A stretch of 64,000 nucleotides of DNA. It comes from an uncultured Acidobacteriota bacterium. Lineage in GTDB: Bacteria > Acidobacteriota > Vicinamibacteria > Vicinamibacterales > UBA823. The translations under genes were made by a program, and so were the position numbers. Positions 1 through 15,661 of the stretch are shown piece by piece. The DNA lies in NCBI GenBank assembly GCA_913052135.1, contig CAJXDY010000002.1, forward strand, positions 33,820 through 97,819. Direction: 5' to 3'. The notes beneath the pieces were generated by a model, which was given only the letters and a program-made list of their open reading frames with translations, did no database searches and was not told where the DNA came from. How positions within the stretch are numbered: the stretch's first letter is position 1; each line of letters begins with the position of its first letter.

Positions 1-1174
1 CTAAACGCTGCCGAATACCATCCGCACCGAAGTGTCGAAGAATCATCCAGAGTTTTAGTGCACGAAACCGCCGTCCAAGTTGAATGCCGGTGTCCATCAG
101 ATTGGTGACACCTGCCGTTTCACTCGTTTTAAGGTACTCTGGGGTGAGTGTGAAGGCTGCGCGAATCATATCCATTCGTCGACAGTACAAGGCACTCAAG
201 TCAAATGGCGTGAATAGCCATTTATGTGGATTGACAACCACCGAGTCGGCTTGTGCGCAACCATCGAGTACGTGTTCGTATCCTGGCACCATTGCGGTTA
301 CGCCTGCTATGGCAGCATCGACATGCAACCAAACGCGTTCAGTCTCGCAAATTTTTGCAATGGCTGGTACGGGATCGATGCTTGTAGTGGCCGTGGTTCC
401 GACGGTGGCGATCACTGCCAAGGGGAGCAGCCCCTTCGCACGGTCGTTTTGAATAGCGCGATTGAGTGCATCTGGTCGCATTCTGAACGAAGAATCGACA
501 GGAATCTTTTGGAGGTTCTGTTGGCCAAAACCAAGCAAAAGCACTGCTTTATCGATCGATGAATGGGCCTGTTCTGAACAGTAGATTCGTAACGCGGGAA
601 GATCGGTTCGACCTGCCAAGCCTTGTTCCCGCACTTTCGGCACTGCTGCCTCGCGTGCTGCTGCCAACGCATGGAGCGTTGACACAGATGCTGTGTCATA
701 GATGACACCATCAAAACCATCCGGTAAGCCGATCAGCCGCCTGAGCCAGGCCAGCGTTACTTCTTCCAGTTCAGTTCCTGCAGGAGAAGCTTGCCATAAC
801 ATTGCATTGACGTTGAGTGCCGCTGCCAGAAACTCTGCGAGCACTCCAGGTGCGCTACCGCTGATCGGGAAATACGCCATGAAGCCTGGATGATTCCAGT
901 GCGTCAGCCCTGGGACGATGATGCGCTCGAAATCATCCAGAATGGTGTCGAAGGATTCGCCTGAATCTGGTGCGGATGTTGGAATCGCATCCCGAATATC
1001 CCCGGGCGCAACGCTCGGCAGCACTGGGTACTTCTCGGGGTTTTGAAGATACTTGGTGACCCACTCAAGGACGCGCTGGCCGTAGCGTCGAAACGCTTCC
1101 GAATCCATATCGCCGAGGTGTTGGTTCACATCATCCGAAACAGTATGTTTCGATTCGTGTGTGTCGGTGGACAT
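1..1174 (-). CDS. PLP-dependent aromatic L-amino acid decarboxylase family (group II, DDC-like); 3' end runs off the window
   Basis: Not in the ORF track because it is truncated. Manual translation from ATG 1174 (alternative ATG 1108) gives THWNHPGFMAYFP, LWQASPAGTELE, WLHVDAA, the PLP-lysine motif VNPHKWL and GRRFRALKLW. Confidence 0.92.
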   Translation of the reverse strand, partial: MSTDTHESKHTVSDDVNQHLGDMDSEAFRRYGQRVLEWVTKYLQNPEKYPVLPSVAPGDIRDAIPTSAPDSGESFDTILDDFERIIVPGLTHWNHPGFMAYFPISGSAPGVLAEFLAAALNVNAMLWQASPAGTELEEVTLAWLRRLIGLPDGFDGVIYDTASVSTLHALAAAREAAVPKVREQGLAGRTDLPALRIYCSEQAHSSIDKAVLLLGFGQQNLQKIPVDSSFRMRPDALNRAIQNDRAKGLLPLAVIATVGTTATTSIDPVPAIAKICETERVWLHVDAAIAGVTAMVPGYEHVLDGCAQADSVVVNPHKWLFTPFDLSALYCRRMDMIRAAFTLTPEYLKTSETAGVTNLMDTGIQLGRRFRALKLWMILRHFGADGIRQRL

Positions 1175-1210
1175 AATGAGATCAGATTATACCGAACAGA
1201 CTTCGTTTAG

Positions 1211-1732
1211 CTAGCGCACGTAATCCAGCGCAAATTTCTTAAGCGTCGGACTTCGCAAGCCGATTGTTTCCGCTTCGGCCGTGGCGGCTTCGACGTCCCA
1301 ATGGTCAAGTTTGACACGCTTAATCAACCACATCGCTCCGACGCGGTTTGCGGAAGCGCAGTGAATAAAGACCGGTTGGTTTGCCGGATCGGCCACGACT
1401 TCGAGGAACTCGTCGGTCGTCTCTTTAGTCGGCGTTCGGAACGGTATGTGAAAGTATTTTAAGTCAGCAGCGAGAGCCGCTTGTGCTCCAGCTTCCACAG
1501 TAGCACCGTCTTCACTTTCTGTTCTGAAGTTGATGATTGATGTGAATCCACGTCGCTTTAGTTCGGTGATAGCGTCAGGCGAGGTTGCACCGGCACAGGC
1601 GGTTGTGGCATCAACTTGAGTAAAGTTTCGAATACCCGGTACTTCTTCCTTGTTTGGCTGTTGTCCTACAAGAATGGCTGCAAACAGAATGATGTAAGTT
1701 GCAACAGTGAACGCAATCTTAAATGTTTGCAT
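1211..1732 (-). CDS. Secreted CX5R phosphatase/sulfurtransferase-like protein (DUF442/BLH-like)
   Basis: Hydrophobic N-terminal signal; IINFRTESE and FIHCASANR (C-X5-R) motifs. Confidence 0.75.
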   Translation of the reverse strand: MQTFKIAFTVATYIILFAAILVGQQPNKEEVPGIRNFTQVDATTACAGATSPDAITELKRRGFTSIINFRTESEDGATVEAGAQAALAADLKYFHIPFRTPTKETTDEFLEVVADPANQPVFIHCASANRVGAMWLIKRVKLDHWDVEAATAEAETIGLRSPTLKKFALDYVR

Positions 1733-1887
1733 ATTAAAGCATTAAACCTTTCCAGAAAAGAGTGAGTTTCAGCAACTCAACAGGATTTGTGCGCGATACT
1801 GGTTTTCATGATTTATGATGGAGCAGTTCTTACCACCTAACATATTAACACGTGCTGTTTGCGTTACTAGTAGGAGCTATCCCTAAC

Positions 1888-2172
1888 ATGAGTGACTTAC
1901 TTTCCGATGCGATAGTTGATGAACAACTCAAGGAATTACCCGGCTGGGAACGTGTCAGAGATTCACTACAGAAGGAATTTACCTTCGACTCGTTTCCTAG
2001 TGCGATTGCGTTCGCGGTACGACTTGCTTTCGAGTCTGAGACCGTCGATCATCATCCTGACATCATGATCCAGTACAAGCGAGTTAAACTGACGTACTCA
2101 ACACATTCAGCTGGCGGTCTTACTCAAAAAGATATTGATGGAGCGCGAATTGCAAATCAGGTGATGTCGTAG
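1888..2172 (+). CDS. phhB: Pterin-4-alpha-carbinolamine dehydratase
   Basis: DHHPDI motif, LTYSTHSAGGLTQKD; AGGAG SD precedes ATG 1888. Confidence 0.9.
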   Translation: MSDLLSDAIVDEQLKELPGWERVRDSLQKEFTFDSFPSAIAFAVRLAFESETVDHHPDIMIQYKRVKLTYSTHSAGGLTQKDIDGARIANQVMS

Positions 2173-2232
2173 TATCGAATCAGTGTCTTGGCTCGAGTAT
2201 GCTGACCTAGTCCATTTTGTTCGGGAGTTAGC

Positions 2233-2745
2233 GTGAGCAGCGTCAAACTTAAGAAAAATTATAGCTCTCGCGAAGTAGCCTCTCTCACTGGGTTGTCTGC
2301 CAGACAACTGCAGTGGTGGGATGCGCGGAAACTGTTTTCGCCAACGGTCGCCTCACACCCTACACAAGCCGGAGGTTTTACTGAACGCAGGTATTCGCCG
2401 GTTGAGTTGTACGAGCTACTGGTTCTTGCGGACCTCCGCCGCCGCGGATTTTCTATTACCAAGATCCGCGCTCTGCTGGATATTCTCAAAAGCCGATTCG
2501 GTGTTCGACTTTACGATGCGATTGGCGACGGTGATAAGGTGACGCTGCTTACCGACGGGCGTGACATCTATGCGAGAACTACTTCGGGAGATTTTTATAA
2601 TCTGCTTGCTGAACCTAACCAGCCACTTCTTGTGCTCGGCAAAGAGGATACGTTGAAAGCGCTCTCCACTCGTATTAGTCGGCGCCGTAGAAAGAGCAAG
2701 TCCAAGCGGGCCAAACAAGGCAAGAAACCAGTTGTGAGTCGTTAG
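2233..2745 (+). CDS. MerR-family HTH transcriptional regulator
   Basis: YSSREVASLTGLSARQLQWWD...RRYS N-terminal MerR HTH; GTG start; basic C-terminal tail. Confidence 0.85.
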   Translation: MSSVKLKKNYSSREVASLTGLSARQLQWWDARKLFSPTVASHPTQAGGFTERRYSPVELYELLVLADLRRRGFSITKIRALLDILKSRFGVRLYDAIGDGDKVTLLTDGRDIYARTTSGDFYNLLAEPNQPLLVLGKEDTLKALSTRISRRRRKSKSKRAKQGKKPVVSR

Positions 2746-2747
2746 GA

Positions 2748-3872
2748 CTAGGTAACTTTTCCTCTGGCCGTGATCGGAATGCTCTGAACGACAGTCAAAT
2801 CGTCCACGAGAAACACGGTGTCAACTAGATTTGATACGACACAAGAGTGGTTGGGCAGGATTCTCACACGGTCGCCAGGCTCAAGCCGACTTGAGCCATT
2901 CTGGGCTATTACCACAGCATGTTCCTCTGACAAGCGATCGATAAACAAGGTGTCATCAGGAGTGGTCGTTTCCAGTTTTGTGAAAACTGCACCGTAACCT
3001 TTCGGCTGTACCTTGCCTCGTCCTGTGTCTGAGGTGAGTATCTTGCTTCCACAGTCAAGAATTAATCGATCTTCAGCCGGTTTTGAAACAACGGTCGCCA
3101 AGACCGATAAGGCACAATCCTGAAGCGTGGCTGAACCGATCGCGACTTGACTCCGGTCGTAGTAGACGTAGTTTCCTGGGCGTAATTCAGTTAATCCAGG
3201 TTCTGTAGCACTAATAAGTGCAGTTGCGGTTGCCCCAACACTAATTTCGTCGATCGCGACACCAACACGGCGAGACTCGTTCGCTAAATTTCGAAGCATG
3301 GCTGCTTCGTCTCTAGCGATTGCTACTCGTTCGTCGTCCGACTTCACGTCGTAGCTATGTCCTGCGTGACTGAGCAATCCGCGAAGACGAAGACCTTGAA
3401 GTGCTACCGTTTGTTGGAGAAACTTGACCGCAGTTTGCAGATCAGGGTCTATGCCGCATCGATGATAGCCAACGTCGACCTTAACTAGCACATCGAGCTG
3501 TTTCCCATGTTCCACCATAAACCGTGACCAGTTCTCAGCGACACGTAGGTGATCGATAGCGATTGATACATGTACACGATCCATTAGTGCAGCCAAACGG
3601 GTCGCGTTTGATGGATTTATTGGGTAGGGAAGACGAATGTCACTACAACCAGCATCTGCAAAAACTTCAGCCTCGCCAATTTTAGCGCAGCAGATACCTT
3701 GGGCGCCGTGGTCGAGTTGCCAGCGGGCAATAAGGGGACTCTTGTGTGTTTTAGTGTGAGGTCGTAGCGCTATCCCTCCGTCCGTCGCGGCACGTTGCAT
3801 CCGACCGATGTTAGCTACAAGTCTTTTACGTTCAATGAGGACTTGCGGAGTCGGCACAGCACTCAATTGCAC
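2748..3872 (-). CDS. Fold-type III PLP enzyme, D-threonine aldolase / DSD1 D-serine dehydratase family
   Basis: LRPHTKTHK (PLP Lys), HAGH, ELRPGNY, LSEEH and PNHSC metal-ligand motifs. Confidence 0.88.
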   Translation of the reverse strand: MQLSAVPTPQVLIERKRLVANIGRMQRAATDGGIALRPHTKTHKSPLIARWQLDHGAQGICCAKIGEAEVFADAGCSDIRLPYPINPSNATRLAALMDRVHVSIAIDHLRVAENWSRFMVEHGKQLDVLVKVDVGYHRCGIDPDLQTAVKFLQQTVALQGLRLRGLLSHAGHSYDVKSDDERVAIARDEAAMLRNLANESRRVGVAIDEISVGATATALISATEPGLTELRPGNYVYYDRSQVAIGSATLQDCALSVLATVVSKPAEDRLILDCGSKILTSDTGRGKVQPKGYGAVFTKLETTTPDDTLFIDRLSEEHAVVIAQNGSSRLEPGDRVRILPNHSCVVSNLVDTVFLVDDLTVVQSIPITARGKVT

Positions 3873-3896
3873 AGGTTTTTCCTTTTCAATGGCGTA

Positions 3897-5486
3897 TCAA
3901 AAGATCCGCACGCGACTCTGCTCACGTAGAAATTGTTGGACGTAGTAGGCGCCCCCGGCACCGCGACCCGAAGATCCACTACCTTTCCAACCACCAAATG
4001 GATTGATGCCGGGCCAAGCTCCAGTGGTTGCGCCAGCTTGTCGATTGGCATACACAACACCCGCTTGGATCCGATCAAAGAACTGGGCAATTTCTGATTC
4101 ATCCTCTGTAAAGATTCCTGCTGTCAAGCCGTACTCGGTTTGGTTAGACAGTTCGAGTGCTTCATCGAGTGACGCGATGCTACCGACAACAGTGAGTGGC
4201 ACGAATAACTCATCGACGAATAGTCGATGATCCAACGGGAGTCCGTCTATCACAGTGGGTTCAAGGAAATATCCATGCCGCAATAGGTCCTCCGTGATGC
4301 GTCTACCTCCCGTAAGAATCCGTCCACCGTCTTGCCCGGCTTCCTCAATGGCGCGTTCGTACGTTTTGATCGCTTGTTCGTTGATCACTGGACCAAGCCA
4401 TTTATTCCGGTCCATTGGATCGCCAACAGTGATTTGTTTTGTTTTTTCGACCAAGAGCTCAACGAAACGATCTTTTACCTCCGCTGCGACATACACGCGA
4501 GAGCATGCAGAACACTTCTGTCCCTGGGCGCCAAAGGCCGACCGCCAAACACCCTCGCTAGCCTTTTCGAGGTTAGCGGAGTTCATCACGATTGCTGGAT
4601 TCTTGCCTCCCATTTCTGTGATCACTGGGCGTGGTGTCTGTCGTCTACCGTTTTCACTTGCCAGCAACATGCCGACTTCCTTTGAACCGGTAAAGACAAT
4701 ACCGTTGATGCCTGGGTTAGCACTGATTTCCTGTCCAACCGTGGAACCAGGACCAGTGACAACATTGAGTACCCCCGGTGGTAATCCGGCTGCCGTCGCA
4801 ATTTCGTACAGCTTGATGCCGAGTAATGGCGTGTCGGTTGCTGGTTTCAATACTACAGTGTTACCTGTTACCAAGGCAGCACCGACAGGCCCGGCTGCTA
4901 GGGCCATGGGGAAGTTGAATGGTGCAATTACTCCCCAGACTCCATACGGTCGAAGGACACTTGTGTTTTCCTCGCCTGGTCCCAGTGCGTCCATTTTCAG
5001 CGCGAAGCCAGCGTTGGCTTCCATCTGGCTGCAGTAATACGCCATGAAGTCGGCTGACTCTTCGATATCACCAACGCATTCAAGCCGGTTCTTACCAGTT
5101 TCGTATCCCATCCATGCTGATAAGTCCCATCGGTTTTTACGAATGCCTTCAGAAATGTTGCGCACCACGGCCACACGTTCTTCCCAAGGTTTGGCGCTCC
5201 ATGACTTTGCCGCAGCATTTGCAGCACGTACGGCGTCACGAACATGATCCGCAGTGCCAGTCTGAAAGCGTGCCAGTACTTGTCGGGTGTCTATCGGACT
5301 GACATCATCGAACTGTTCAGCTGATTCGATGGCTTGTCCATCAATATACATGGGGTGTGTCTGGCCGAACTTCGGGGTGATTCGTTCGATGGCTCGGTCA
5401 ATGCCGTTATGCAGATCATTCATCTGGTCTGCGCTCATTGTCGCGTAGGTGATCTTCTGGTCTTGGGTCGGTTCTACCATTGCCAC
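3897..5486 (-). CDS. Aldehyde dehydrogenase, 1-pyrroline-5-carboxylate dehydrogenase (RocA/PruA)-like
   Basis: APFNFP, FTGS, EMGGKN, GQKCSACSR, ELFVP and PFGGWKGSG motifs. Confidence 0.88.
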   Translation of the reverse strand: MAMVEPTQDQKITYATMSADQMNDLHNGIDRAIERITPKFGQTHPMYIDGQAIESAEQFDDVSPIDTRQVLARFQTGTADHVRDAVRAANAAAKSWSAKPWEERVAVVRNISEGIRKNRWDLSAWMGYETGKNRLECVGDIEESADFMAYYCSQMEANAGFALKMDALGPGEENTSVLRPYGVWGVIAPFNFPMALAAGPVGAALVTGNTVVLKPATDTPLLGIKLYEIATAAGLPPGVLNVVTGPGSTVGQEISANPGINGIVFTGSKEVGMLLASENGRRQTPRPVITEMGGKNPAIVMNSANLEKASEGVWRSAFGAQGQKCSACSRVYVAAEVKDRFVELLVEKTKQITVGDPMDRNKWLGPVINEQAIKTYERAIEEAGQDGGRILTGGRRITEDLLRHGYFLEPTVIDGLPLDHRLFVDELFVPLTVVGSIASLDEALELSNQTEYGLTAGIFTEDESEIAQFFDRIQAGVVYANRQAGATTGAWPGINPFGGWKGSGSSGRGAGGAYYVQQFLREQSRVRIF

Positions 5487-5547
5487 TACCTTTCCTCTCG
5501 ATAAATGTTCTTCATTGTAGCCTTAGCCTCTTAAGTAGCATCAGACT

Positions 5548-7164
5548 TTAGGATCTTTTTCGACGGTCTTTTAAGACTTCCCGACTTGCATTCATGCCGC
5601 AGGCTCCCGTCACACCTCCACCAGGATGTGTACCTGCTCCACAGAGGTATAGTTGGCGCATGGGTGTACGGTACTGTGACAAGCTAGGGAGTGGTCGCAG
5701 GTTGAACAACTGGTCGAGCGCATGTTCTCCATGAAAAATATGACCGCCAGTCATTCCATAAGTTGATTCAAAATCGAACGGTGTCAAAACCTGCTGGCCG
5801 ACGATGTGCTGGTCGAGTGTTGGTACGTAATGCCGAAGTTCAGCGAGAACAGCGTCTTTAAACGGGTCACGCGATTGATCCCAATTACTGTCACGAAGCT
5901 GATACGGTGCAAATTGGGCACAAATAGACAACACATGGTGTCCAGTTGGCGCAAGTGTGGGATCGGTGAGTGTCGGAATAGTAATGTCCATGTACGGATG
6001 ATCTGAATATCGACCGTACTTCGATGCATCAAACGCTCGCTCAAGATAATCCAGGTCTGGACCAATGTGTATCCGGCCTGATAATGCTGAGGCGGCCTCG
6101 GTTTTCGTTGCTGTGTTTAACGCCGTGAATACAGGCAGTGCATCTAACGCCAAATTGATTTTCGCCATGACGCCGCGAGTCCGAATATTCTGTAATTTAG
6201 TGACGAAGTTCGGGTCAAGATTGGCTGGATCGACAAGGTGTAGCAATGTGCGTTTTGGATCAACATTTGAAATCACAGTCGAGGCTGTAATTTCTTCTCC
6301 GTCATCAAGAACAACACCAACTGCTTGACCGGACTTCACCGTGATTCGTGTGACCTCAACGTTATTACGAATTGTCGCACCGGCGGCCTCGGCTGCTGCT
6401 GCCATTCCTTGAGTGAGGGCTCCAAGACCACCTTGGAATCCATGGATTGCCCCGACTGGATGATCGCTAAGCGCTGCTTGCAGTAGCAACGCTGCACCAG
6501 ATCCAACTGACCGGGGACCACGGAAATCGCCATAGATACCACGTGCCGCGAGGAGGGACTTTAGTATGTCCGTTTCAAACCATTCGGCGAGGAGGTCAGC
6601 CACAGGCATGGGTAGCCAGCGCAGGAGACGGAATCCGTTAGTTCGACCGAGGGCGCGAAATTTACGGCTTGTTTTAAGGAATTGCCAAGCGTCGGCTAAC
6701 GTTGGCGTTTCGATTGACGGTGGTGTACGCCAAAGGACATCCCTCAGCAAGTCACTTATTTGGTGAATGCTTTGATTGAATTCTTGGTAACGCTCGCCAT
6801 CTTTCCTGGATAATTTCGAAATTTCCTCCACTGTGCGGTCTGCGTCAACATATGCGACAAGTCGCTGCCCGTCCAAAAGGGGTGCGAAGGCGCAAGTTTC
6901 TGGCTCCAATCGTTTCACACCAAATTGATGCAATTTCATATCGCGGATAATGTTTGGATGAACCGGTCCAGCGGAGTGTGCGAGTGTGGAGCAGCGGAAA
7001 CCAGGACACAACTCTGACGTAATTGCTGCGCCACCGACCATGCTTCGACGTTCTAACACCAACGGCTTCAATCCCGCTTTAGCAAGATAAAAAGCTGCGA
7101 CCAGTCCGTTGTGTCCTCCACCTATGATAACGGTGTCGACAGCGTGGTTACGTGTCACGTTCAT
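5548..7164 (-). CDS. Phytoene desaturase (CrtI)-like FAD-dependent oxidoreductase, paralogue B
   Basis: IIGGGHNGLVAAFYLA dinucleotide fold; LYLCGAGTHPGGGVTG C-terminal motif. Confidence 0.85.
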   Translation of the reverse strand: MNVTRNHAVDTVIIGGGHNGLVAAFYLAKAGLKPLVLERRSMVGGAAITSELCPGFRCSTLAHSAGPVHPNIIRDMKLHQFGVKRLEPETCAFAPLLDGQRLVAYVDADRTVEEISKLSRKDGERYQEFNQSIHQISDLLRDVLWRTPPSIETPTLADAWQFLKTSRKFRALGRTNGFRLLRWLPMPVADLLAEWFETDILKSLLAARGIYGDFRGPRSVGSGAALLLQAALSDHPVGAIHGFQGGLGALTQGMAAAAEAAGATIRNNVEVTRITVKSGQAVGVVLDDGEEITASTVISNVDPKRTLLHLVDPANLDPNFVTKLQNIRTRGVMAKINLALDALPVFTALNTATKTEAASALSGRIHIGPDLDYLERAFDASKYGRYSDHPYMDITIPTLTDPTLAPTGHHVLSICAQFAPYQLRDSNWDQSRDPFKDAVLAELRHYVPTLDQHIVGQQVLTPFDFESTYGMTGGHIFHGEHALDQLFNLRPLPSLSQYRTPMRQLYLCGAGTHPGGGVTGACGMNASREVLKDRRKRS

Positions 7165-7188
7165 ATGGTTCCTATCGAATGAGGCACA

Positions 7189-8787
7189 TCAGCAGGCTCC
7201 ATCGAATTTTGAGTTACCCAATATACGTTGAGCAGCGTTTCGTCCTGGAGCTCCCATAATGCCGCCTCCAGGATGAGCTCCAGACCCGCACATATAAAGG
7301 TTTTTGATGGGGGTTTGGTAGTTTGCCCAGCCTGGCGCTGGGCGCAGGAAGAACAATTGTTCAAGTGAAAGCTCACCTTGGAAAATATTCCCTTCGGTCA
7401 ATCCAAACTCCCGCTCCAGATCGAGAGGTGTCAGCACCTGACGATGCAACACAATGTTTTTCAGGTTTGGCGCATACTCTGCGAGTGTGTCAATAACACA
7501 GTCGCCAAAATGTTCCCGCTCACTATCCCAATCTCCTTGCTTTAGGTGGTATGGCGCGTACTGCACGAAACACGACATTACGTGTTTGCCAGGTGGAGCG
7601 ACAGTCGGATCTGTTAGGCTTGGAATAACGATATCTATATAAGGTCGTTCAGAGTATTGCCCATATTTCGCATCGTCGTATGCACGTTCGATGTAATCGA
7701 TGCTCGGAGAAATCGAGATTGCACCTCGTAGGTGAGAGCCCGCACCAGGTAGACATGTAAAATCCGGTAGCGTGTCTAATGCAAGGTTGACTTTACCTGA
7801 TGATCCACGAAACTTATATCGACGGATGTCATCAGAAAACTCGTCTGGTAAATGTTCGCTTCCCACCATCTTTAGAAAAGTCAAACGTGGATCAACACTT
7901 GACGCTATAACATCGGCATACACACAGTCACCGTTCTCAAGCACGACGCCAGTGGCACGTCCGCGTTTGACCAAAATTTTTGAAACGCTAGCCTCCGTTT
8001 CAATTTCCGCACCGGCTTCCCTTGCGGCTTTAGCGATTGCATTGGAGATTGCCCCTGTACCACCACGTGGTAATCCCCAAGATCGGAAAGCCCCATCAAT
8101 TTCACCCATATAGTGATGTAGCAGCACAAACGCGGTGCCTGGGGAACGCACGCCCAGAAACGTACCTATAATTCCAGACGCTGCCATTGTTGCCTTCAGT
8201 ACATCAGTTTCAAACCACTGATTCAGGAGATCGACTGCGCTCATGGTCATGAGTTGAATTTGTTTATGCTGGTTGTCAGATGACAAATTCCTAAAGCGCT
8301 TGCCAATTGACATAAGTTGCATAAGGGCACGCGGGTTGAAAGACATTGGATCAGGTGGTGTCATGCTCAGCAGCGGCTTGACGAACCGACCCATCTCGAA
8401 CATCGTTCTGCCGTAGTCTTCATAGGCCTCGGCATCAAGTCGGGAATGTCTAGCGATTTCCCGTCGAGTTGTCGCATGGTCGTTCACCCGCCAGAGATAG
8501 TCACCGTCAGGCATCGGTGTAAAGGTGCCGTCCAGCGGCAAAATTTCGAGACCATGCTTCGGGAGATTAAGATCGCGAATAATCTCAGGTCGAAGGAGAG
8601 ACACGACGTAAGAACAGACAGAGAAGGTGAAGCCAGGGAAGACTTCTTCACTAACGGCGGCGCCGCCCAATACATGACGACGTTCGAGCACCAATGTTTT
8701 CTTGCCGGCGCGCGCAAGGTACGCCGCTGTTACTAAACCATTGTGCCCACCACCAATGATGACAGCATCATACTTACCGGTCGTCAT
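7189..8787 (-). CDS. Phytoene desaturase (CrtI)-like FAD-dependent oxidoreductase, paralogue A
   Basis: Start revised to ATG 8787 (MTTGKYDAVIIGGGHNGL); LYMCGSGAHPGGGIMGAPG; the upstream ORF extension overlaps the divergent gene. Confidence 0.85.
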   Translation of the reverse strand: MTTGKYDAVIIGGGHNGLVTAAYLARAGKKTLVLERRHVLGGAAVSEEVFPGFTFSVCSYVVSLLRPEIIRDLNLPKHGLEILPLDGTFTPMPDGDYLWRVNDHATTRREIARHSRLDAEAYEDYGRTMFEMGRFVKPLLSMTPPDPMSFNPRALMQLMSIGKRFRNLSSDNQHKQIQLMTMSAVDLLNQWFETDVLKATMAASGIIGTFLGVRSPGTAFVLLHHYMGEIDGAFRSWGLPRGGTGAISNAIAKAAREAGAEIETEASVSKILVKRGRATGVVLENGDCVYADVIASSVDPRLTFLKMVGSEHLPDEFSDDIRRYKFRGSSGKVNLALDTLPDFTCLPGAGSHLRGAISISPSIDYIERAYDDAKYGQYSERPYIDIVIPSLTDPTVAPPGKHVMSCFVQYAPYHLKQGDWDSEREHFGDCVIDTLAEYAPNLKNIVLHRQVLTPLDLEREFGLTEGNIFQGELSLEQLFFLRPAPGWANYQTPIKNLYMCGSGAHPGGGIMGAPGRNAAQRILGNSKFDGAC

Positions 8788-8961
8788 GTCGCTATTTGTC
8801 CAATGATTGCAAGAGTTAATGTTTGAATGTGGAGATCGACGTGTTTCGTTCCATGCTCCAATCTGACATTGTATGCGATCGACTGGCCTTGTCGGAATCG
8901 CCTTCCACTCTCTATAATCCGATAAGGACGTCAGAACAAGACTTCGGAGATAGGAGTAATA

Positions 8962-10173
8962 GTGCCAATTGGATCGGCCGTGCACGCGCGAACCTTGCAG
9001 TTATGCGAAAGTCTTAATTATCGTGACTGGTCTGGATATTATGCAGTTAGTGCGTATGAAAGTCACCACGACTACGAGTACAGTGCTATTCGCACAGGCG
9101 CTGCTTTAATTGACATCTCTCCACTGTACAAATATCTCATCAAGGGGCCTGATGCGGAGCGCTTGGTTAACCGCGTGATTACGCGAGATGTGACGAAGTT
9201 AAAAGTTGGCCAGGTTACTTACACGACTTGGTGTGATGAATTTGGAAAAGTCATTGATGATGGCACGGTGTCGAAGTTGGCAGAAGATCGCTATCGCTGG
9301 ACTGCGGCCGACCCAAACCTGCTCTGGTTTCAGCGCAATGCCCGTGGTTTAAACGTGTCCATCGAAGATATATCACAAGAAATGGCGGCTTTGGCTATCC
9401 AGGGTCCCATGTCGGCTAAAGTGCTTGGTCGACTTTCTGATTGCGATCTACAGAACCTGAAGTACTTTCGGGTTTTGAGTACTACTTTAGCCAACCTCTC
9501 CGTAGACGTGTCACGTACTGGGTACACAGGTGATCTCGGTTATGAGTTATGGATGAAATGGCAGGATGCGGTCAAAGTATGGGATGCGGTTATCGGCCTT
9601 AAGTCGTTATTTGGTGTGCGACCGGTGGGCATGTTGGCGCTAGATGTTGCTCGCATCGAAGCTGGTTTGCTACTAACCGACGTGGATTTTGTTAGTAGCC
9701 GTAAGGCGCTGACTTCGTCACAATCCTATTCGCCGTTCGAAATGGGATTAGGGCGGCTGGTTAGTCTCGACAAAGAATGTTTTGTCGGCCAAACGGCTCT
9801 TCAGAATGAGTATCGTAGAGGATCGACTCGTCAAATTGTTGGGCTTGAGGTTGACTGGGCTCAAATCGAACGTTTGTATGATCGAGCGCAACTGCCCGCT
9901 GAACCTCCAATGGTCGCGTCCCGAGAAGCTGTACCGATTTACAACAATAATGTTCAGATTGGCAAGGTAACATCAATGACTTGGTCACCCGCACTGAAGA
10001 AGTTGATCGCCCTTGGTACTTTAGCGAAAAATAGTTGCGAACAGGGCAATCACGTCCAAGTCGAGTACACCATCGACGCGGTCCGGTACAAAGTAAATGC
10101 CACGGTGGCTAAGACACCATTCTTTAATCCCCCGCGTAAGGTTTCGACCTCGCCAATTGAAGATCCAAATTAG
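8962..10173 (+). CDS. GcvT-like aminomethyltransferase family protein
   Basis: LIDISPL, VIDDG, RTGYTGDLGYELW, ARIEAG; GGAG SD before GTG. Confidence 0.88.
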   Translation: MPIGSAVHARTLQLCESLNYRDWSGYYAVSAYESHHDYEYSAIRTGAALIDISPLYKYLIKGPDAERLVNRVITRDVTKLKVGQVTYTTWCDEFGKVIDDGTVSKLAEDRYRWTAADPNLLWFQRNARGLNVSIEDISQEMAALAIQGPMSAKVLGRLSDCDLQNLKYFRVLSTTLANLSVDVSRTGYTGDLGYELWMKWQDAVKVWDAVIGLKSLFGVRPVGMLALDVARIEAGLLLTDVDFVSSRKALTSSQSYSPFEMGLGRLVSLDKECFVGQTALQNEYRRGSTRQIVGLEVDWAQIERLYDRAQLPAEPPMVASREAVPIYNNNVQIGKVTSMTWSPALKKLIALGTLAKNSCEQGNHVQVEYTIDAVRYKVNATVAKTPFFNPPRKVSTSPIEDPN

Positions 10174-10285
10174 TAATTACGATTTTTTCGAAGCTTCTAA
10201 AGTGCGCAACTAAGTCCCAGAGTCTCGTATATGTATATAATGTGATGTTCATCTAGTTACAATCTTGTCTTCAAGGAGGACTCCA

Positions 10286-10726
10286 ATGTCGCAAGCGCAA
10301 CCACAAAATTACGGCAACCACTCGCGTATGGTTGCACCATTCCATTATGTTGCATTGCCACTTCTTCTAATCAATTTTGGTTGGTCAATTTATCGAGCCA
10401 TTACGGCGATGTCCACGGAGACCATAATTGGGGCATTAACTGCTCTTGCTCTGATCATTATTGGTTTATTTTCAAGAATACATGCTCTTTGGGCGCAGGA
10501 TCGTGTCATTAGACTCGAAATGCGCTTAAAACTAATTGACATTCTTCCAGACGACCTTAAATCGCGGTTTGACGATCTTTCAACGGCCCACCTTGTTGCC
10601 TTACGTTTTGCTAGTGATGCTGAGCTTCCTGGACTAGTTCGCAGGGTGCTCGATGGCAGTTTGACCGAACAGAAGGCGATTAAACAGGCGATTGTGAATT
10701 GGCAGGCAGACTATCAGCGTGTCTGA
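10286..10726 (+). CDS. DUF6526-like membrane protein
   Basis: QNYGNH...FHYVALP, QDRVIRLEMRL, LRFASDAEL, IKQAIVNWQADYQRV; AGGAGG SD before ATG 10286. Confidence 0.7.
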   Translation: MSQAQPQNYGNHSRMVAPFHYVALPLLLINFGWSIYRAITAMSTETIIGALTALALIIIGLFSRIHALWAQDRVIRLEMRLKLIDILPDDLKSRFDDLSTAHLVALRFASDAELPGLVRRVLDGSLTEQKAIKQAIVNWQADYQRV

Positions 10727-10757
10727 ATCCAATGGCGCACACGAAGGAGTGGTGTAA

Positions 10758-11564
10758 ATGGTTCAGGTGAGTATCCCAGTGCCAGCACGCCGGTTCGGGG
10801 AGACTTTTAGGAGTGACGCCTGGTGGCTACAACCTTTGGTTGTCGCGTTCGGGCTTGGCCTGTTTGTTGTTTATTCGACTTGGGCGGCGTTTCAGGGCGA
10901 GTATTATCACGCTGGGCCTTACCTGTCGCCGTTCTACTCGCCCGAGCTATTCGGTGCATCGTCACACGCTTGGCTCGGTACAAAACCAACGGCATGGCCT
11001 GTTTGGTTACCGTGGTCACCGGCGTTTCTTATTCTTGGTATCCCAGTTGGGTTTCGATTGACCTGCTACTACTACCGCGGCGCTTACTATAAGGCTTTCT
11101 GGGCAGATCCTCCTAATTGTGCCGTTGGCGAGCTTCGAGAGTCTTACCTCGGTGAGCGCTCGTTTCCACTCATTATCCAGAATGTACACCGGTATTTTCT
11201 CTATCTCGCCTTGGTGTTCATCATGATCCTTGCCTACGACGCTTGGAAGGGATTGTGGTTCCCTGATCCAGTCACGGGTATTACAAGTTTTGGTATCGGA
11301 GTGGGTAGTCTTGTACTAATCCTGAACGTTACTCTCCTCGGTGGTTATACCTTCGGTTGTCACTCGTTGCGTCATCTGGCAGGTGGTCGCGTCGATAAAC
11401 TCTCACACATGAATCGATTACGCCAGTCGACATATGACTGTGTGAGTTGTCTCAACCAACGACACATGCTCTGGGCGTGGATGAGCTTGGTGTGGGTTGG
11501 CTTCACTGATTTTTATATTCGGATGTGTGCAATGGGTACTTGGACAGATTTTCGGTTGTTGTGA
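10758..11564 (+). CDS. sdhC: Succinate dehydrogenase membrane anchor, mycobacterial Sdh1 (Rv0249c)-like
   Basis: Multiple TM helices; RLTCYYYR, NVHRYF, GCHSLRH, RHMLWAW; directly upstream of the flavoprotein and Fe-S subunits. Confidence 0.8.
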   Translation: MVQVSIPVPARRFGETFRSDAWWLQPLVVAFGLGLFVVYSTWAAFQGEYYHAGPYLSPFYSPELFGASSHAWLGTKPTAWPVWLPWSPAFLILGIPVGFRLTCYYYRGAYYKAFWADPPNCAVGELRESYLGERSFPLIIQNVHRYFLYLALVFIMILAYDAWKGLWFPDPVTGITSFGIGVGSLVLILNVTLLGGYTFGCHSLRHLAGGRVDKLSHMNRLRQSTYDCVSCLNQRHMLWAWMSLVWVGFTDFYIRMCAMGTWTDFRLL

Positions 11565-11599
11565 TGGGCATTTGAAGCCTTGACGACGACTTACGAGTT

Positions 11600-13405
11600 A
11601 TGGACTATCAAATCTACGAACACGATGTGTTAGTTATCGGTGCGGGCGGGGCCGGCCTTCGAGCCGCGATCGAAGCGTCGGCTTCCGGGGTCTCTGTTGG
11701 CCTGGTGTGTAAGTCACTCTTAGGTAAAGCACACACCGTCATGGCAGAGGGTGGCGTGGCTGCAGCTCTGGGCAACGTGGATGACCGCGATGCGTGGAGT
11801 GTGCATTTTGCCGATACGATGCGTGGCGGTCAGTACATGAACAATGCTCGGATGGCTGAGCTTCATGCCAAGGAGGCCCCAGAACGAGTACGTGAACTTG
11901 AAGGTTGGGGCGCACTGTTTGATCGCACGACTGATGGACGGATCTTGCAACGTAATTTCGGTGGGCACAAATATGCTCGACTTGCCCATGTAGGTGACCG
12001 AACTGGGCTCGAAATGATTCGTACACTGCAGGATCACGGGATACATCAAGGACTTGACGTGCACATGGAGTGCACGATTCTAGAGTTGCTTAAGGATGGA
12101 AATCGCGTTGTTGGTGCCTTTGGCTACGACCGCGAGCGCGGACGCTTCCGTGTATTCCGTGCGCGTTCTGTAGTGCTGGCCACCGGTGGTATTGGTAAGG
12201 CCTATAGGATTACGAGTAATTCTTGGGAATATACCGGCGATGGACATTCACTCGCGTACGAAGCTGGCGCGGATCTTATTGACATGGAATTCGTTCAGTT
12301 TCATCCAACTGGTATGGTCTGGCCACCAAGTGTGCGAGGGATTCTTGTTACCGAGGGTGTACGTGGTGAGGGTGGACTCCTAAAGAACAAGGACGGCCAC
12401 CGGTTTATGTTCGATGATATTCCTGATCTTTATAAGCATCAGACTGCCGACAACGTCGAGGAGGGTTGGCGATATACCCAAGGTGATAAAGATGCGCGAC
12501 GACCGCCAGAATTATTAACCCGCGATCACGTTGCACGATGTATTGTCCGGGAGATTAAGGAAGGTCGAGGTTCCGAACACGGTGGTGTCTATCTTGATAT
12601 CGCTTGGATTAAAGAACGACTGTCGAACGGATCTGAACATATCAAGAAGAAACTACCAAGTATGTACCACCAATTTAAGCAACTTGCTGGAATCGACATC
12701 ACTAAGGAGTCCATGGAGGTTGGTCCGACGACACACTATGTAATGGGTGGTGTTCGTGTTGATCCTGAGACTCAGATGTCCCGTGTGCCTGGATTGTTTG
12801 CAGCTGGAGAGTGCGCAGGCGGTCTGCATGGGGCAAACAGACTCGGCGGTAACTCCCTGTCGGATCTGCTGGTTTTTGGTAAACGTGCAGGCGAATCCGC
12901 AGCAGTGTTCGCGAAGGAGCACGATGCCGGGGTGGTTGACACTGACCAGGTCGGCGAAATTGCGCAACGGGCACTTCAGCCGTTTTCTCGTGACGGCGAA
13001 GGGCCTTACGCTATTCAGCAAGACCTTCAAGTCATGATGCAAGGATTAGTTGGTATCGTGCGGCAGGATCCGGAAATGCAACGGGCCTTGGATGGACTTG
13101 TGCAGCTAAACGATCGAGCCAATCAGGTAAGTGTTGTTGGACATCGTGAATACAATAATGGTTGGCATACAGCGCTTGATCTGCGGAATTTGTTAACCGT
13201 GTCTGAGGCGGTGGCTCGAGCAGCGATTATGCGTCAAGAAAGCCGAGGAGCTCACTTCCGTGAAGATTACCTCGCCAAGGATGATGCATGGGGAAAACAA
13301 AACATCATCATTCGAAAAGCACCTGACGGCATGATGCAAGTGGATTGCGAGCCAATCCCTCAGTTGCGAACTGACTTAGTTCAGATTATTCAAGATAATA
13401 AGTAG
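11600..13405 (+). CDS. sdhA: Succinate dehydrogenase/fumarate reductase flavoprotein subunit
   Basis: GAGGAG, GKAHTVMAEGG (covalent FAD His), QFHPT, TEGVRGEGG, HYVMGG, GANRLGGNSL. Confidence 0.95.
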   Translation: MDYQIYEHDVLVIGAGGAGLRAAIEASASGVSVGLVCKSLLGKAHTVMAEGGVAAALGNVDDRDAWSVHFADTMRGGQYMNNARMAELHAKEAPERVRELEGWGALFDRTTDGRILQRNFGGHKYARLAHVGDRTGLEMIRTLQDHGIHQGLDVHMECTILELLKDGNRVVGAFGYDRERGRFRVFRARSVVLATGGIGKAYRITSNSWEYTGDGHSLAYEAGADLIDMEFVQFHPTGMVWPPSVRGILVTEGVRGEGGLLKNKDGHRFMFDDIPDLYKHQTADNVEEGWRYTQGDKDARRPPELLTRDHVARCIVREIKEGRGSEHGGVYLDIAWIKERLSNGSEHIKKKLPSMYHQFKQLAGIDITKESMEVGPTTHYVMGGVRVDPETQMSRVPGLFAAGECAGGLHGANRLGGNSLSDLLVFGKRAGESAAVFAKEHDAGVVDTDQVGEIAQRALQPFSRDGEGPYAIQQDLQVMMQGLVGIVRQDPEMQRALDGLVQLNDRANQVSVVGHREYNNGWHTALDLRNLLTVSEAVARAAIMRQESRGAHFREDYLAKDDAWGKQNIIIRKAPDGMMQVDCEPIPQLRTDLVQIIQDNK

Positions 13406-13428
13406 GTTAAGGAGTTCGCGGAGAAAAT

Positions 13429-14166
13429 ATGAGCACAGCGACACTTAAGATCTGGCGTGGTAATAGAGACAGTGGTGCATTTCAGCAATATTCCACTGAG
13501 ATTGATGAAGGCATGGTTGTGCTCGATGCCGTATTGGGAATTCAAGCAGAGCAGGCCCACGACTTGGCTGTTCGCTGGAACTGTAAAGCGGGGAAATGCG
13601 GGTCATGTTCAGCAGAGATCAATGGCAATCCCAGATTGATGTGTATGACACGGATGGACACAATTCCAATTGATCGCCCCATAACGGTTGAGCCGATGCA
13701 GGCGTTTCCGTTGATTAAGGACTTGGTAACGGATGTGTCTTGGAATTTTAAGGTAAAACAGGAGATTACCCCATTTACGCCGAAACCAGCAGATGGTGAC
13801 GATGGTACCTGGCGGATGCAGCAGCGTGATGTCAACCGGGTTCAAGAATTCCGTAAGTGCATTGAGTGCTATCTATGTCAGGATGTCTGCCATGTTCTCC
13901 GAGACCATCGGAAGCACGACGAGTTTATAGGACCACGTTTTCTGGTCTACGCTGCTGCTCTTGAGATGCACCCGCTCGATATTGCCGATCGGGTCGATGA
14001 ACTTTCCTCAACTGGTGGTATTGGCTACTGCAACATTACGAAATGTTGCACGAAAGTATGTCCCGAAGAGATCACTATCACTGACAATGCAATTATTCCG
14101 CTAAAGGAACGTGTCGTCGATAAGTTCTACGATCCACTGACTAAGTTGTTTAGGATTTTCCAGTAA
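13429..14166 (+). CDS. sdhB: Succinate dehydrogenase/fumarate reductase iron-sulfur subunit
   Basis: CKAGKCGSC...C, CIECYLCQDVC and CNITKCCTKVCP cluster motifs. Confidence 0.95.
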   Translation: MSTATLKIWRGNRDSGAFQQYSTEIDEGMVVLDAVLGIQAEQAHDLAVRWNCKAGKCGSCSAEINGNPRLMCMTRMDTIPIDRPITVEPMQAFPLIKDLVTDVSWNFKVKQEITPFTPKPADGDDGTWRMQQRDVNRVQEFRKCIECYLCQDVCHVLRDHRKHDEFIGPRFLVYAAALEMHPLDIADRVDELSSTGGIGYCNITKCCTKVCPEEITITDNAIIPLKERVVDKFYDPLTKLFRIFQ

Positions 14167-14212
14167 GTTGAGTTTTCGTTAGATGTATCTTGTTGCAATC
14201 TTCCGGAGTTAA

Positions 14213-14461
14213 TTAGTGCATCCATGGGTTGCGATCTTTTTCCCATGTTTCGGCTTCCTCTTCATCCCAGTGTCGACGCTGGGCTTTCCTCTTCTGGCGA
14301 TGTCGCCAGATGGCGATAAGCGCAAGTAATGTTACAACCGACCAAAGAGTCGATGGGCTTGAGACAAATCCAACCCATAATTCCCAAACCGCTGGCCGTT
14401 GCCAATAAACGGTTTCAGTATGCTGTGCCAACGAATCTGCTGTAGCGAAGAGACTAAGCAC
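14213..14461 (-). CDS. Small hypothetical membrane protein
   Basis: GTG 14461 lies just after the upstream stop; one hydrophobic helix followed by a basic stretch (WRHRQKRK). Confidence 0.5.
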   Translation of the reverse strand: MLSLFATADSLAQHTETVYWQRPAVWELWVGFVSSPSTLWSVVTLLALIAIWRHRQKRKAQRRHWDEEEAETWEKDRNPWMH

Positions 14462-14462
14462 G

Positions 14463-15494: not shown

Positions 15495-15661
15495 TGAAGT
15501 CTAAACCTCCAGGAGGGCCAGTCAAGCTGCGATCTACATTCATACATATTAAAGTGGCGCGAGCGTACCATGGCAATCCAAGGACGGTCAATTACGTTCA
15601 ATCCCAGTTTATGTTGATCTCTCGTATAATTAAGTGTGACTACAAATCTGTGAAAATCGTC

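Follow-up and report, generated by a model that had tools for sequence, protein, structure and literature searches.

A conserved trio of a GcvT-like protein and two PYROXD2-like flavoproteins in Acidobacteriota: a candidate split, folate-coupled N-demethylase

The locus and its five gene products

The window (the whole 64,000-nucleotide stretch of DNA analysed here, from an uncultured member of the Acidobacteriota) contains a stand-alone GcvT-like gene divergent from a block of four co-directional genes, the first two of which encode paralogous flavoproteins, B and A. The features are as follows.

8962..10173, + strand: GcvT-like folate-binding protein, 403 aa, with GCV_T and GCV_T_C domains; core module
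8788..8961, no strand: 174-bp intergenic spacer that separates the GcvT-like gene from flavoprotein B, its divergent neighbour; presumed shared control region
7189..8787, - strand: flavoprotein B, 532 aa, PYROXD2-like FAD oxidoreductase; core module
5548..7164, - strand: flavoprotein A, 538 aa, paralogue of B; core module in Acidobacteriota
3897..5486, - strand: P5C-dehydrogenase-like aldehyde dehydrogenase (ALDH), 529 aa; lineage-specific neighbour
2748..3872, - strand: PLP enzyme of the D-threonine-aldolase/D-serine-dehydratase family, 374 aa; lineage-specific neighbour

The gaps within the block are 24 bp (B to A), 61 bp (A to ALDH), and 24 bp (ALDH to PLP enzyme). The five genes, with their positions, gaps, and motifs, had been described in an earlier sequence-only reading of this DNA, and open reading frames and domain scans bear out that description. 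The same reading placed no gcvP, gcvH, or carotenoid genes next to the locus, which also holds: the canonical gcvT, gcvH, and gcvP genes are grouped on a different contig (G000:C1:16441 to about 20800), and no carotenoid or squalene gene was found among the ORFs scanned in window positions 1-16000, which are part of those listed. The long ORF of flavoprotein B (7189-8985) opens with GTG, and the ATG at 8787, which immediately precedes the Rossmann motif, is the likely translation start. Sigma-70-like matches in the 174-bp divergent region (8889-8918 on the + strand and 8895-8868 on the - strand) are no more numerous than in shuffled sequence.

The GcvT-like protein, one of three GCV_T proteins in the whole genome, matches GCV_T with 195 bits, followed by GCV_T_C. 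Among NCBIfam models it fits the C-terminal domain of TMAO demethylase (Tdm) best, at 274 bits; it scores 152 bits on the SoxA family model, 137 bits on DmdA, and 75 bits on LigM, and falls under the cut-offs of both GcvT models (226 versus 300 and 165 versus 236). It is a paralogue rather than the glycine-cleavage T-protein: the real gcvTHP genes lie elsewhere, and the protein is most closely related to the domain of TMAO demethylase that captures formaldehyde. Residue D100 aligns with D96 of the Thermotoga maritima T-protein and with D552 of dimethylglycine oxidase (DMGO), an aspartate that we take to be catalytic, and E195 is also retained. The arginine of the GARD motif, present in two aligned true T-proteins, is replaced by leucine in both the window protein and Tdm, and by phenylalanine in DMGO.

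Flavoproteins B and A are CrtO/CrtI-fold FAD paralogues with 44% mutual identity. Both match the Amino_oxidase family, B also matches NAD_binding_8, and DAO is matched in the Rossmann part only. Flavoprotein B scores 327 bits on the CrtO model (cut-off 1000) and 134 bits on crtI_fam (cut-off 238), and aligns over its full length with oyster PYROXD2 at 43% identity (437 bits), by which it is assigned to the PYROXD2 family; flavoprotein A is 36% identical to the oyster protein. B is the slowly evolving paralogue, with 74-83% identity among Acidobacteriota classes. A evolves faster, retains intact FAD motifs, and branches as a separate clade (SH-aLRT 99); the LLHHYMG motif of B, to which oyster PYROXD2 has the related LLHHVMG, is absent from A.

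The ALDH (Aldedh, 468 bits) carries the GQKCSAC motif at residues 322-328. It matches P5C dehydrogenases best (PRK03137, 423 bits, and TIGR01237, 393 bits, both under cut-off), and among the P5CDH-like genes of the genome it ranks first. The PLP enzyme is of fold-type III, with Ala_racemase_N and D-ser_dehydrat domains and the PLP-lysine motif RPHTKTHK; among solved structures it is closest to 4v15 and 3wqc, a D-threonine aldolase and a D-threo-3-hydroxyaspartate dehydratase.

Conservation and neighbours of the three-gene unit

The conserved unit consists of three genes: the GcvT-like gene and those for flavoproteins B and A. Across 80 Acidobacteriota loci from Blastocatellia, Vicinamibacteria, Terriglobia, and Thermoanaerobaculia, 78 have A after B, and 69 contain the GcvT-like gene, divergently oriented in 67 of these, with a median gap of 297 bp. 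The sequence-only reading had allowed that these genes might not co-occur in other genomes, which does not hold for the trio. Among 61 evenly drawn genomes, the unpublished genome G043 included, 17 have B-like genes; all 14 with a GcvT-like gene fall within those 17, and none of the 44 genomes without B has one. The two genes are adjacent in 12 of 13 genomes of this sample.

The gene order varies within and beyond the phylum. All three genes lie on a single strand in one genome (GcvT-B-A), and another has the order Rieske-B-A-GcvT. Nocardioides caldifontis has a GcvT-flavoprotein operon with overlapping gene ends. Operons are also seen in two metagenomic contigs outside the acidobacterial set: one encodes an IclR-GcvT fusion followed by a flavoprotein, with a Rieske gene alongside, and the second has the order flavoprotein-paralogue-GcvT. 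A single record, P0314 (945 aa), joins a GCV_T domain and then a PYROXD2-like domain in one polypeptide. The arrangement is far beyond chance, since it is found repeatedly over the phylum as well as outside it.

Three kinds of gene recur beside the trio in the 80 loci: a GbcA-like Rieske oxygenase (27 loci), true PurU (25 loci), and APC (amino-acid) permeases (25 and 20 loci). GbcA-like oxygenases are of the quaternary-amine demethylase type, and the one that recurs here most resembles glycine-betaine monooxygenase. In the window's genome, no Rieske oxygenase, PurU, or amino-acid permease adjoins the trio. One recurrent 492-aa neighbour cluster has no Pfam or NCBIfam match.

A candidate folate-coupled flavin N-demethylase

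What the genes encode, their conservation and co-occurrence, the families to which they belong, and the folate-site residues that are retained make it, on balance, probable that the trio works as a split flavin N-demethylase coupled to folate, with methylated amines or N-methyl amino acids as substrates. This reading is built on gene context and homology, from which we infer the chemistry, the formation of a complex, and the nature of the electron acceptor and substrate. Oxidation of an N-methyl C-N bond by one flavoprotein would yield an iminium ion; the GcvT-like protein, with tetrahydrofolate (THF), would then take the C1 unit to give 5,10-methylene-THF, with no release of formaldehyde; and the second paralogue could carry out a successive demethylation or serve as a partner subunit. 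In this organism, the ALDH and the PLP enzyme may process the de-methylated carbon skeleton, outside the module. The sequence-only reading had also proposed a split FAD amine oxidase with a THF-dependent C1 acceptor, and comparative genomics supports that part well (strict co-occurrence, adjacency in 69 of 80 loci, operons outside the acidobacterial set, and the Rieske and PurU neighbours); the partnership with the ALDH and the PLP enzyme, which it included, does not share this support.

Several further observations bear on the N-demethylase reading. The Rieske, PurU, and permease neighbours are typical of methylamine and C1 metabolism and favour it, as does the habitat, since the source organism is marine and methylated osmolytes are abundant in marine settings. 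PYROXD2 is, to our knowledge, an orphan mitochondrial flavoprotein with no known folate partner. The membership of B in the PYROXD2 family also favours this reading: human PYROXD2 variants control the levels of N6-methyl-, dimethyl-, and trimethyl-lysine, N-methylpipecolate, trimethylamine, and dimethylamine (PMC8109053, PMC5780481, PMC3169529, PMC13355647). Six observations count against this reading. First, the GcvT-like gene is missing from six of the 80 loci despite ample upstream sequence. Second, in genome G052 it lies on a different contig from B. Third, no PurU match in the window's genome passes the cut-off, and its sole Rieske homologue lies elsewhere and is distant (28% identity). 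Fourth, no GcvT neighbour was found for the bacterial family members outside the B clade, among them P0135, the sampled bacterial relative nearest to animal PYROXD2. Fifth, characterised CrtI/CrtO members act on C-C bonds of lipophilic substrates and not on amines. Sixth, the stand-alone GcvT-like proteins DmdA and LigM transfer methyl groups without an oxidase.

Among the closest known systems are dimethylglycine oxidase and the mammalian dimethylglycine and sarcosine dehydrogenases, in which the C1 unit from flavin-dependent oxidation of an N-methyl group passes to a GcvT-like folate module. The window GcvT-like protein aligns with the folate domain of DMGO from Arthrobacter globiformis (PDB 1pj5) at 111 bits. 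DMGO-type enzymes, however, have a DAO-family flavin domain fused N-terminally to the folate domain, whereas the window module has CrtI/PYROXD2-family flavoproteins encoded by separate genes, usually two paralogues per folate protein. By sequence, the GcvT-like protein is most closely related to the C-terminal domain of Tdm (PDB 9q59, 175 bits; NCBIfam NF053776, 274 bits), with which it shares the leucine at the GARD-arginine position, but it covers Tdm positions 388-759 only, and its 274 bits fall short of the cut-off of 1100; the catalytic domain of Tdm is N-terminal and metal-dependent, not a flavoprotein. Heterotetrameric sarcosine oxidase (SoxBDAG) and N-methylglutamate dehydrogenase are multi-subunit flavin N-demethylases with a folate-binding GcvT-like region; the SoxA family model matches the window protein, and sox clusters often adjoin PurU, comparable to its presence in 25 of the 80 loci. 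In SoxBDAG, however, the catalytic subunit is the DAO-type SoxB and the folate region lies inside the large alpha subunit; the window locus has no soxB-, soxD-, or soxG-like genes. Animal PYROXD2 belongs to the same protein family as B and A, but in our tree the eukaryote clade branches outside both of their clades and PYROXD2 falls outside the GcvT-linked clade, although the AU test does not reject a grouping of B with PYROXD2 (p = 0.135).

Alternative readings and the lineage-specific genes

The ALDH and the PLP enzyme are order-specific neighbours and not conserved members of the module. In the 80 loci, the ALDH orthologue is never found and the PLP gene occurs three times, at least 5 kb away; the ALDH orthologue is present in 6 of the 61 genomes, versus 17 with B. 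The ALDH adjoins the module in the window's order only, and the PLP gene only within family f1. Genome G015, 100% complete and of the same order, keeps the ALDH, the PLP gene, and MerR, with an opposite-strand GNAT gene between the first two, and lacks the flavoproteins and the GcvT-like gene. The proposal that the two enzymes are pathway partners of the trio is thus not matched by conservation. These facts also weigh against the idea that all five genes form one pathway for an N-methyl amino acid (N-methylproline, N-methylpipecolate, or methyl-lysine/methyl-ornithine), in which the P5CDH-like ALDH would oxidise an amino-semialdehyde or cyclic imine and the PLP enzyme would take a D- or beta-hydroxy-amino-acid intermediate. 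Such a pathway is suggested by the co-directional, closely spaced block from B to the PLP gene, in which no convincing terminator was found; by an RNA-library contig that spans the A/ALDH junction; and by the integrity of the block in all family f1 genomes, with the ALDH near the module in two more families of the order. Further afield, in the distant genome G024, a GcvT-like paralogue is followed immediately by an ALDH orthologue with 50% identity, with two BHMT-like genes alongside; in G075 the orthologue is surrounded by class-III aminotransferases and an amine oxidase, a setting suited to semialdehyde oxidation in amine catabolism; and an L-threonine-aldolase-like PLP gene follows A in eight Pyrinomonadaceae loci. 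The conservation in f1, however, reflects general synteny, because the sdh operon and MerR are conserved there too, and the ALDH is also the best candidate for the housekeeping P5C dehydrogenase of a genome that encodes a monofunctional proline dehydrogenase elsewhere. The ALDH is perhaps co-transcribed with the module, the pathway membership of both enzymes is uncertain, and we consider the five-gene pathway unlikely.

Slightly less likely again is a direct methyl transfer to THF by the GcvT-like protein, in the manner of DmdA and LigM, with flavoproteins that work on the carbon skeleton instead of oxidising the N-methyl group; they might, for instance, be RetSat-like saturases or desaturate an unsaturated betaine or thioether. 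Stand-alone GcvT-family demethylases without an oxidase do exist, and some members of the CrtI superfamily are saturases or isomerases. A 2026 mQTL study added crotonobetaine to the PYROXD2-linked metabolites (PMC13355647), and BHMT-like methyltransferase genes are found close to family members in G024 and next to P0156. Yet the GcvT-like protein is far closer to the Tdm domain and the T-proteins (274 and 226 bits) than to DmdA (137 bits) or LigM (75 bits), and it retains the aspartate that aligns with DMGO D552. The strict co-occurrence with the flavoproteins is what subunits or a coupled step would produce, and the PurU and GbcA-like Rieske context fits a methylene- or formyl-THF flux from oxidative demethylation.

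The flavoproteins might instead oxidise another C-N bond, of glycine, aminomethyl, or polyamine type, with the GcvT-like protein processing an aminomethyl fragment without H-protein; we regard this as a little less probable than direct methyl transfer. Both flavoproteins match Amino_oxidase, the GcvT-like protein has the T-protein fold and folate-site residues, and amino-acid permeases, arginase, and class-III aminotransferases lie beside some relatives. Against this, the GARD arginine of the two aligned true T-proteins is replaced by leucine, the recurrent Rieske partner is nearest to glycine-betaine monooxygenase, and N-methyl groups unite the PYROXD2 mQTL metabolites (PMC13355647). Highly improbable, finally, is that the flavoproteins are carotenoid or hopanoid desaturases or ketolases of CrtO/CrtI type beside an unrelated GcvT-like gene: they share the fold and FAD motifs, beta-carotene ketolase CrtO is the top NCBIfam match for both (327 and 296 bits), and the best solved relative by sequence is the phytoene desaturase 4dgk (82 bits), but the CrtO scores are a third of the cut-off of that model and the crtI_fam cut-off is missed as well, no carotenoid or squalene gene was found among the scanned window ORFs or the scanned recurrent neighbour clusters of the 80 loci, and the conserved partner is a folate enzyme, whose strict co-occurrence and repeated re-arrangement with the flavoproteins are inexplicable by chance adjacency.

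Gene families of the locus

ORF and domain scans recover exactly the gene content described by the sequence-only reading: tandem FAD oxidoreductase paralogues (A and B, 44% identical), an aldehyde dehydrogenase (ALDH), a D-amino-acid PLP enzyme, and a divergent GcvT-like gene.

Genes of the locus and its flanks (coordinates, strand, identity, and basis)
1852-2172, +, pterin-4a-carbinolamine dehydratase gene (99 bits, cut-off 80)
2233-2745, +, MerR-family regulator after the pterin-4a-carbinolamine dehydratase gene, its end 2 bp from the PLP gene
2748-3872, -, fold-type-III PLP enzyme (ORF and domain scan)
3897-5486, -, ALDH (ORF and domain scan)
5548-7164, -, FAD oxidoreductase A (ORF and domain scan)
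7189-8787, -, FAD oxidoreductase B (ORF and domain scan)
8962-10173, +, GCV_T/GCV_T_C protein, the GcvT-like gene, divergent from the other four (ORF and domain scan)
10265-10726, +, DUF6526 gene, 91 bp downstream of the GcvT-like gene
34914-35945, +, third of the genome's GCV_T-domain genes, encoding a YgfZ/CAF17-like folate-binding Fe-S assembly factor (TIGR03317 at 72 bits against a cut-off of 49)

The intergenic gaps are 24 bp (PLP/ALDH), 61 bp (ALDH/A), 24 bp (A/B), and 174 bp (B/GcvT-like). The frame of B is open from 8985, yet the ATG at 8787 immediately precedes the Rossmann motif. Promoter and terminator scans of the locus gave match counts no higher than in shuffled sequence. The YgfZ-like gene at 34914-35945 is unrelated to the module formed by B, A, and the GcvT-like gene. 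The DUF6526 gene occupies the same place in all genomes of the window's family and in 0 of 80 phylum-wide loci.

Both flavoproteins carry the GGGHNGL...ERR FAD motif and match NAD_binding_8; their match to Amino_oxidase spans the full length. Their best NCBIfam model is CrtO, an equivalog with a cut-off of 1000 bits of which they reach approximately one third (B 327, A 296 bits), and both lie below the 238.1-bit cut-off of the crtI_fam subfamily (B 134, A 139 bits); by curated cut-offs, neither A nor B belongs to the CrtO or CrtI families. Solved relatives are distant only, with CrtI matching at 82 bits. The earlier statement that carotenoid genes are not adjacent agrees with the ORFs scanned in window 1-16000, none of which is a carotenoid gene. 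The best cluster representatives include oyster and mayfly PYROXD2, and atlas neighbours bear the same name. Oyster PYROXD2 is 43% identical to B over the full length (437 bits, E 2e-152) and 36% identical to A, and the LLHHYMG motif of B, which reads LLHHVMG in the oyster protein, is lost in A. In a quick maximum-likelihood tree, B and A form separate clades (SH-aLRT 96-97 and 99, respectively), neither of which contains the eukaryote PYROXD2 clade; a grouping of B with the PYROXD2 clade is not rejected by the AU test (p = 0.135). The DAO model (PF01266) matches B in the 37-residue Rossmann part only and A over a longer, partial stretch at 58 bits. This sets A and B apart from dimethylglycine oxidase (DMGO), DMGDH, SARDH, and TSOX, whose catalytic flavin domain belongs to the DAO family (PF01266), whereas A and B belong to the Amino_oxidase family.

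The GcvT-like gene is not the housekeeping T-protein, because the genome (G000) has a real gcvT-gcvH-gcvP set on another contig. This canonical set lies together at G000:C1:16441 to about 20800, which bears out the earlier remark that no gcvP or gcvH adjoins the module. The GcvT-like protein falls below both T-protein cut-offs (PRK00389, 226 against 300 bits; TIGR00528, 165 against 235.85 bits), and a different gene of the genome matches Pfam GCV_T at 313 bits. Its best matches are, in order, the C-terminal domain of TMAO demethylase (Tdm), T-proteins, and DMGO and SoxA, with DmdA and LigM much weaker. D100 aligns with D96 of the T. maritima protein and D552 of DMGO; D100 and E195 are both retained, without variation across 16 orthologues. 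Where the two true T-proteins aligned have the GARD-motif arginine, the GcvT-like protein has Leu227, Tdm has Leu, and DMGO has Phe. We take these three positions to be catalytic or folate-site residues.

Conservation of the flavoprotein and GcvT-like genes

Sequence relatives put the window's genome within Acidobacteriota. Of 20 related genomes compared for the B-A tandem, those of the same family all have it (11/11), and it also occurs in three further families of the order. Family members keep the block entire, as they do the flanking sdh operon and the MerR gene; since these are conserved too, block conservation at this range reflects general synteny. Farther out the block loosens: in two other families of the order there are insertions between A and the ALDH gene, and the PLP gene is gone; in G007, another of the comparison genomes, the GcvT-like gene shares a strand with B and A, and there is neither an ALDH nor a PLP gene.

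At the scale of the phylum, 80 loci were fetched by similarity to B from Pyrinomonadaceae, Vicinamibacterales, Terriglobales, Thermoanaerobaculia, and others, and their neighbours were counted by tblastn. A follows B in 78/80 loci. The GcvT-like gene lies within the locus in 69/80, divergent upstream in 67, at a median distance of 297 bp; five of the eleven loci that lack it have sequence ending less than 2.1 kb upstream. We also examined 61 genomes sampled evenly across the phylum (B-like, E <= 1e-100; GcvT-like, E <= 1e-60), whose counts include one unpublished genome, G043, on which nothing else rests; as related genomes are not independent, counts are given in place of a statistical test. 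B-like genes occur in 17/61 genomes and GcvT-like genes in 14/61, all 14 of them within the 17, leaving 0/44 among the B-negative genomes, and the GcvT-like gene adjoins B in 12 of 13 genomes. Three B-positive genomes lack it: two have only distant paralogues (48-49% identical), and the third has B right at the beginning of a contig. Co-occurrence across genomes, proposed earlier as a refuting test of the module, thus turns out in favour of the trio (14/14 GcvT-like genomes with B; 69/80 loci).

Beyond the acidobacterial set, the flavoprotein family proved large in a search across 1.8 billion cluster representatives, and the contigs of eight of these were inspected. The three that fall inside the B clade of the tree all have a GcvT-like gene in the same operon: in Nocardioides caldifontis, the GcvT-like gene precedes the flavoprotein with overlapping ends; on one contig, a Rieske gene and an IclR-GcvT fusion diverge, the fusion being followed by a flavoprotein and a degenerate second flavoprotein; another has a flavoprotein, its paralogue, and a GcvT-like gene. 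None of the five outside the B clade (0/5) has a GcvT neighbour. Given 3/3 inside against 0/5 outside, the GcvT link belongs to the B clade and not to the family at large.

Several other arrangements were seen. At L100:6433-8004, on a metagenomic contig, a GcvT-like protein of 523 aa carries an N-terminal IclR-type HTH domain and may be a regulator fused to a folate protein. A single record (P0314, from a 28.9-kb ENA contig) is a 945-aa single ORF with a GCV_T domain at 18-247 followed by a PYROXD2-like domain at 420-926; its neighbours encode an arginase, a class-III aminotransferase, and an SSF transporter. Among open frames of 930-960 aa over B-like matches, no GcvT fusion was found, and behind long open frames lay separate overlapping genes (locus L007) or lone paralogues (L112 and L113). 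Five Rosetta-stone-like B-A fusions (939-1064 aa) were not counted, and the one inspected (P0310 in contig L116) is an artefact: the 1064-aa frame at L116:5001-8195 is a B gene with an internal frameshift near 6035, the frame running on into A, through either a sequencing error or pseudogenization. The comparison genome G024 (2.4 Mb, one contig) encodes fourteen PYROXD2-like paralogues, with tandem arrays of six and seven and four GcvT-like genes beside them (C1:1212277-1224886, 1619380-1631102, and 1177160-1180077), an expansion that is striking for a genome of this size and suggests many substrates.

Recurrent neighbours, the ALDH, and the PLP enzyme

The 80 loci share further neighbours. 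A Rieske oxygenase alpha subunit is present in 27/80; its best NCBIfam model is GbcA, glycine-betaine monooxygenase, at 127-221 bits, which is below the 670 cut-off. A genuine PurU (412 bits, above cut-off) is present in 25/80. Both PurU and Rieske betaine demethylases commonly accompany methylamine catabolism linked to folate. In G073, a further comparison genome, Rieske, B, A, and GcvT form a single operon. APC amino-acid permeases of two kinds occur in 25/80 and 20/80 loci, and a 492-aa protein without a family match in 25/80. Carotenoid synthesis genes (phytoene synthase, cyclase, etc.) are absent from the scanned recurrent neighbour clusters. The genome of the window has no PurU above cut-off, and a Rieske protein only as a distant homologue elsewhere. 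An L-threonine-aldolase-like PLP enzyme occurs in 8/80 loci, namely L026 (at 13872-14909) and seven other Pyrinomonadaceae loci, where this Beta_elim_lyase gene follows A. In the window's family, the D-threonine-aldolase-family gene occupies a comparable position; the two genes are unrelated.

The sequence-only reading had counted the ALDH and the PLP enzyme as partners of the flavoproteins, and this part of it falls. The ALDH orthologue is found in 0/80 loci and in only 6/61 genomes of the even sample, and the PLP gene in 3/80 loci, at least 5 kb away. Conversely, G015 (100% complete, same order) keeps the ALDH, PLP, MerR, and pterin dehydratase genes and has no flavoprotein and no GcvT-like gene; there, an opposite-strand GNAT gene separates the ALDH and PLP genes. 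The ALDH and the PLP enzyme are outside the module. The tight gaps and co-orientation in the window favour a looser link, and the ALDH may serve the module in this lineage. The pterin dehydratase and MerR pair accompanies the ALDH/PLP block in relatives, including the module-less G015.

The GQKCSAC motif attributed to the ALDH was found at residues 322-328. The protein scores below the P5CDH cut-offs (TIGR01237, 393 against 659.65 bits; PRK03137, 423 against 648 bits) and is the best P5CDH-like gene of a genome that encodes a monofunctional proline dehydrogenase elsewhere, which speaks against its membership of the module. An orthologue directly follows a GcvT-like paralogue in G024, with two BHMT-like genes beside it; in the comparison genome G075, the genes around an orthologue include class-III aminotransferases and a classical amine oxidase. 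These two placements also favour the looser link. We read the ALDH as a putative amino-semialdehyde dehydrogenase that associates with one amine-catabolic set or another, depending on the lineage. The PLP enzyme matches Ala_racemase_N (100 bits) and D-ser_dehydrat (83 bits), both above cut-off, and 4v15 (168 bits), and has the PLP-lysine motif RPHTKTHK; it scores 153 bits against 690 for the BhcC equivalog.

A proposed folate-coupled demethylase and its relation to PYROXD2

The idea of a split FAD oxidase with a THF-dependent C1 acceptor draws support from the strict co-occurrence and adjacency of the flavoproteins and the GcvT-like gene; the ALDH drops out as its partner. In the most likely mechanism, the flavoprotein would oxidize an N-methyl group of the substrate, and the GcvT-like protein with tetrahydrofolate (THF) would accept the one-carbon unit in the form of methylene-THF. 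A further demethylation, or a role as partner subunit, would fall to the second paralogue. DMGO and the sarcosine and dimethylglycine dehydrogenases follow the same logic, from which the module differs in using another flavoprotein family and separate genes. What it has in common with DMGO, DMGDH, SARDH, and TSOX is a GcvT-like folate module tied to a flavoprotein; here it is a separate, adjacent, and strictly co-occurring gene. Complex prediction for B, FAD, and the GcvT-like protein, with alignments for each, gave 0.32, compared with 0.28 for a control with B replaced, which counts neither for nor against a complex. We found no paper that characterizes the B-type flavoprotein clade or its GcvT-like link, and literature searches for a characterized PYROXD2-type enzyme, and for a system pairing a phytoene dehydrogenase with an aminomethyltransferase, returned only GWAS papers or nothing.

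Human PYROXD2 carries one of the genome's strongest metabolite QTLs: ~50% of plasma N6-methyllysine variance is explained by a missense variant (PMC8109053). Levels of N6-methyl-, dimethyl-, and trimethyl-lysine, N-methylpipecolate, trimethylamine, and dimethylamine are under the control of variants in this gene, and trimethylamine is higher when PYROXD2 expression is lower (PMC8109053, PMC5780481, PMC3169529). We found no paper assigning PYROXD2 a reaction; a 2026 study infers its role only from the "methylated amino groups" common to the linked metabolites (PMC13355647). The human genetics points in the direction of the N-demethylation reading. The bacterial context adds a PYROXD2 relative locked to a folate-binding C1 acceptor, often with a betaine-type Rieske demethylase and PurU. 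It is conceivable, if rather doubtful, that B, A, and the GcvT-like protein assemble as a new class of folate-coupled N-demethylase built on the CrtI/PYROXD2 fold in place of DAO, and that the same oxidative N-demethylation (of methyl-lysines, N-methylpipecolate, and small methylamines) is the activity of human PYROXD2. The link from the module to PYROXD2 itself is an extrapolation, as members outside the B clade are without the folate partner.

If true, the N-demethylase reading would give Acidobacteriota, including a marine lineage, an extra way to demethylate methylated osmolytes. Four metatranscriptome studies contain short Logan contigs that touch all six genes, one contig bridging the A/ALDH junction; this is a weak hint of expression, as such contigs cannot show a transcript and may stem from DNA carry-over. 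DNA near-identical to window 2700-10200, with 0.94-0.97 of sampled words shared, turns up in 13 metagenome runs (marine, seawater, and hydrothermal vent) that come from at least eight studies; the organism is a widespread marine acidobacterium.
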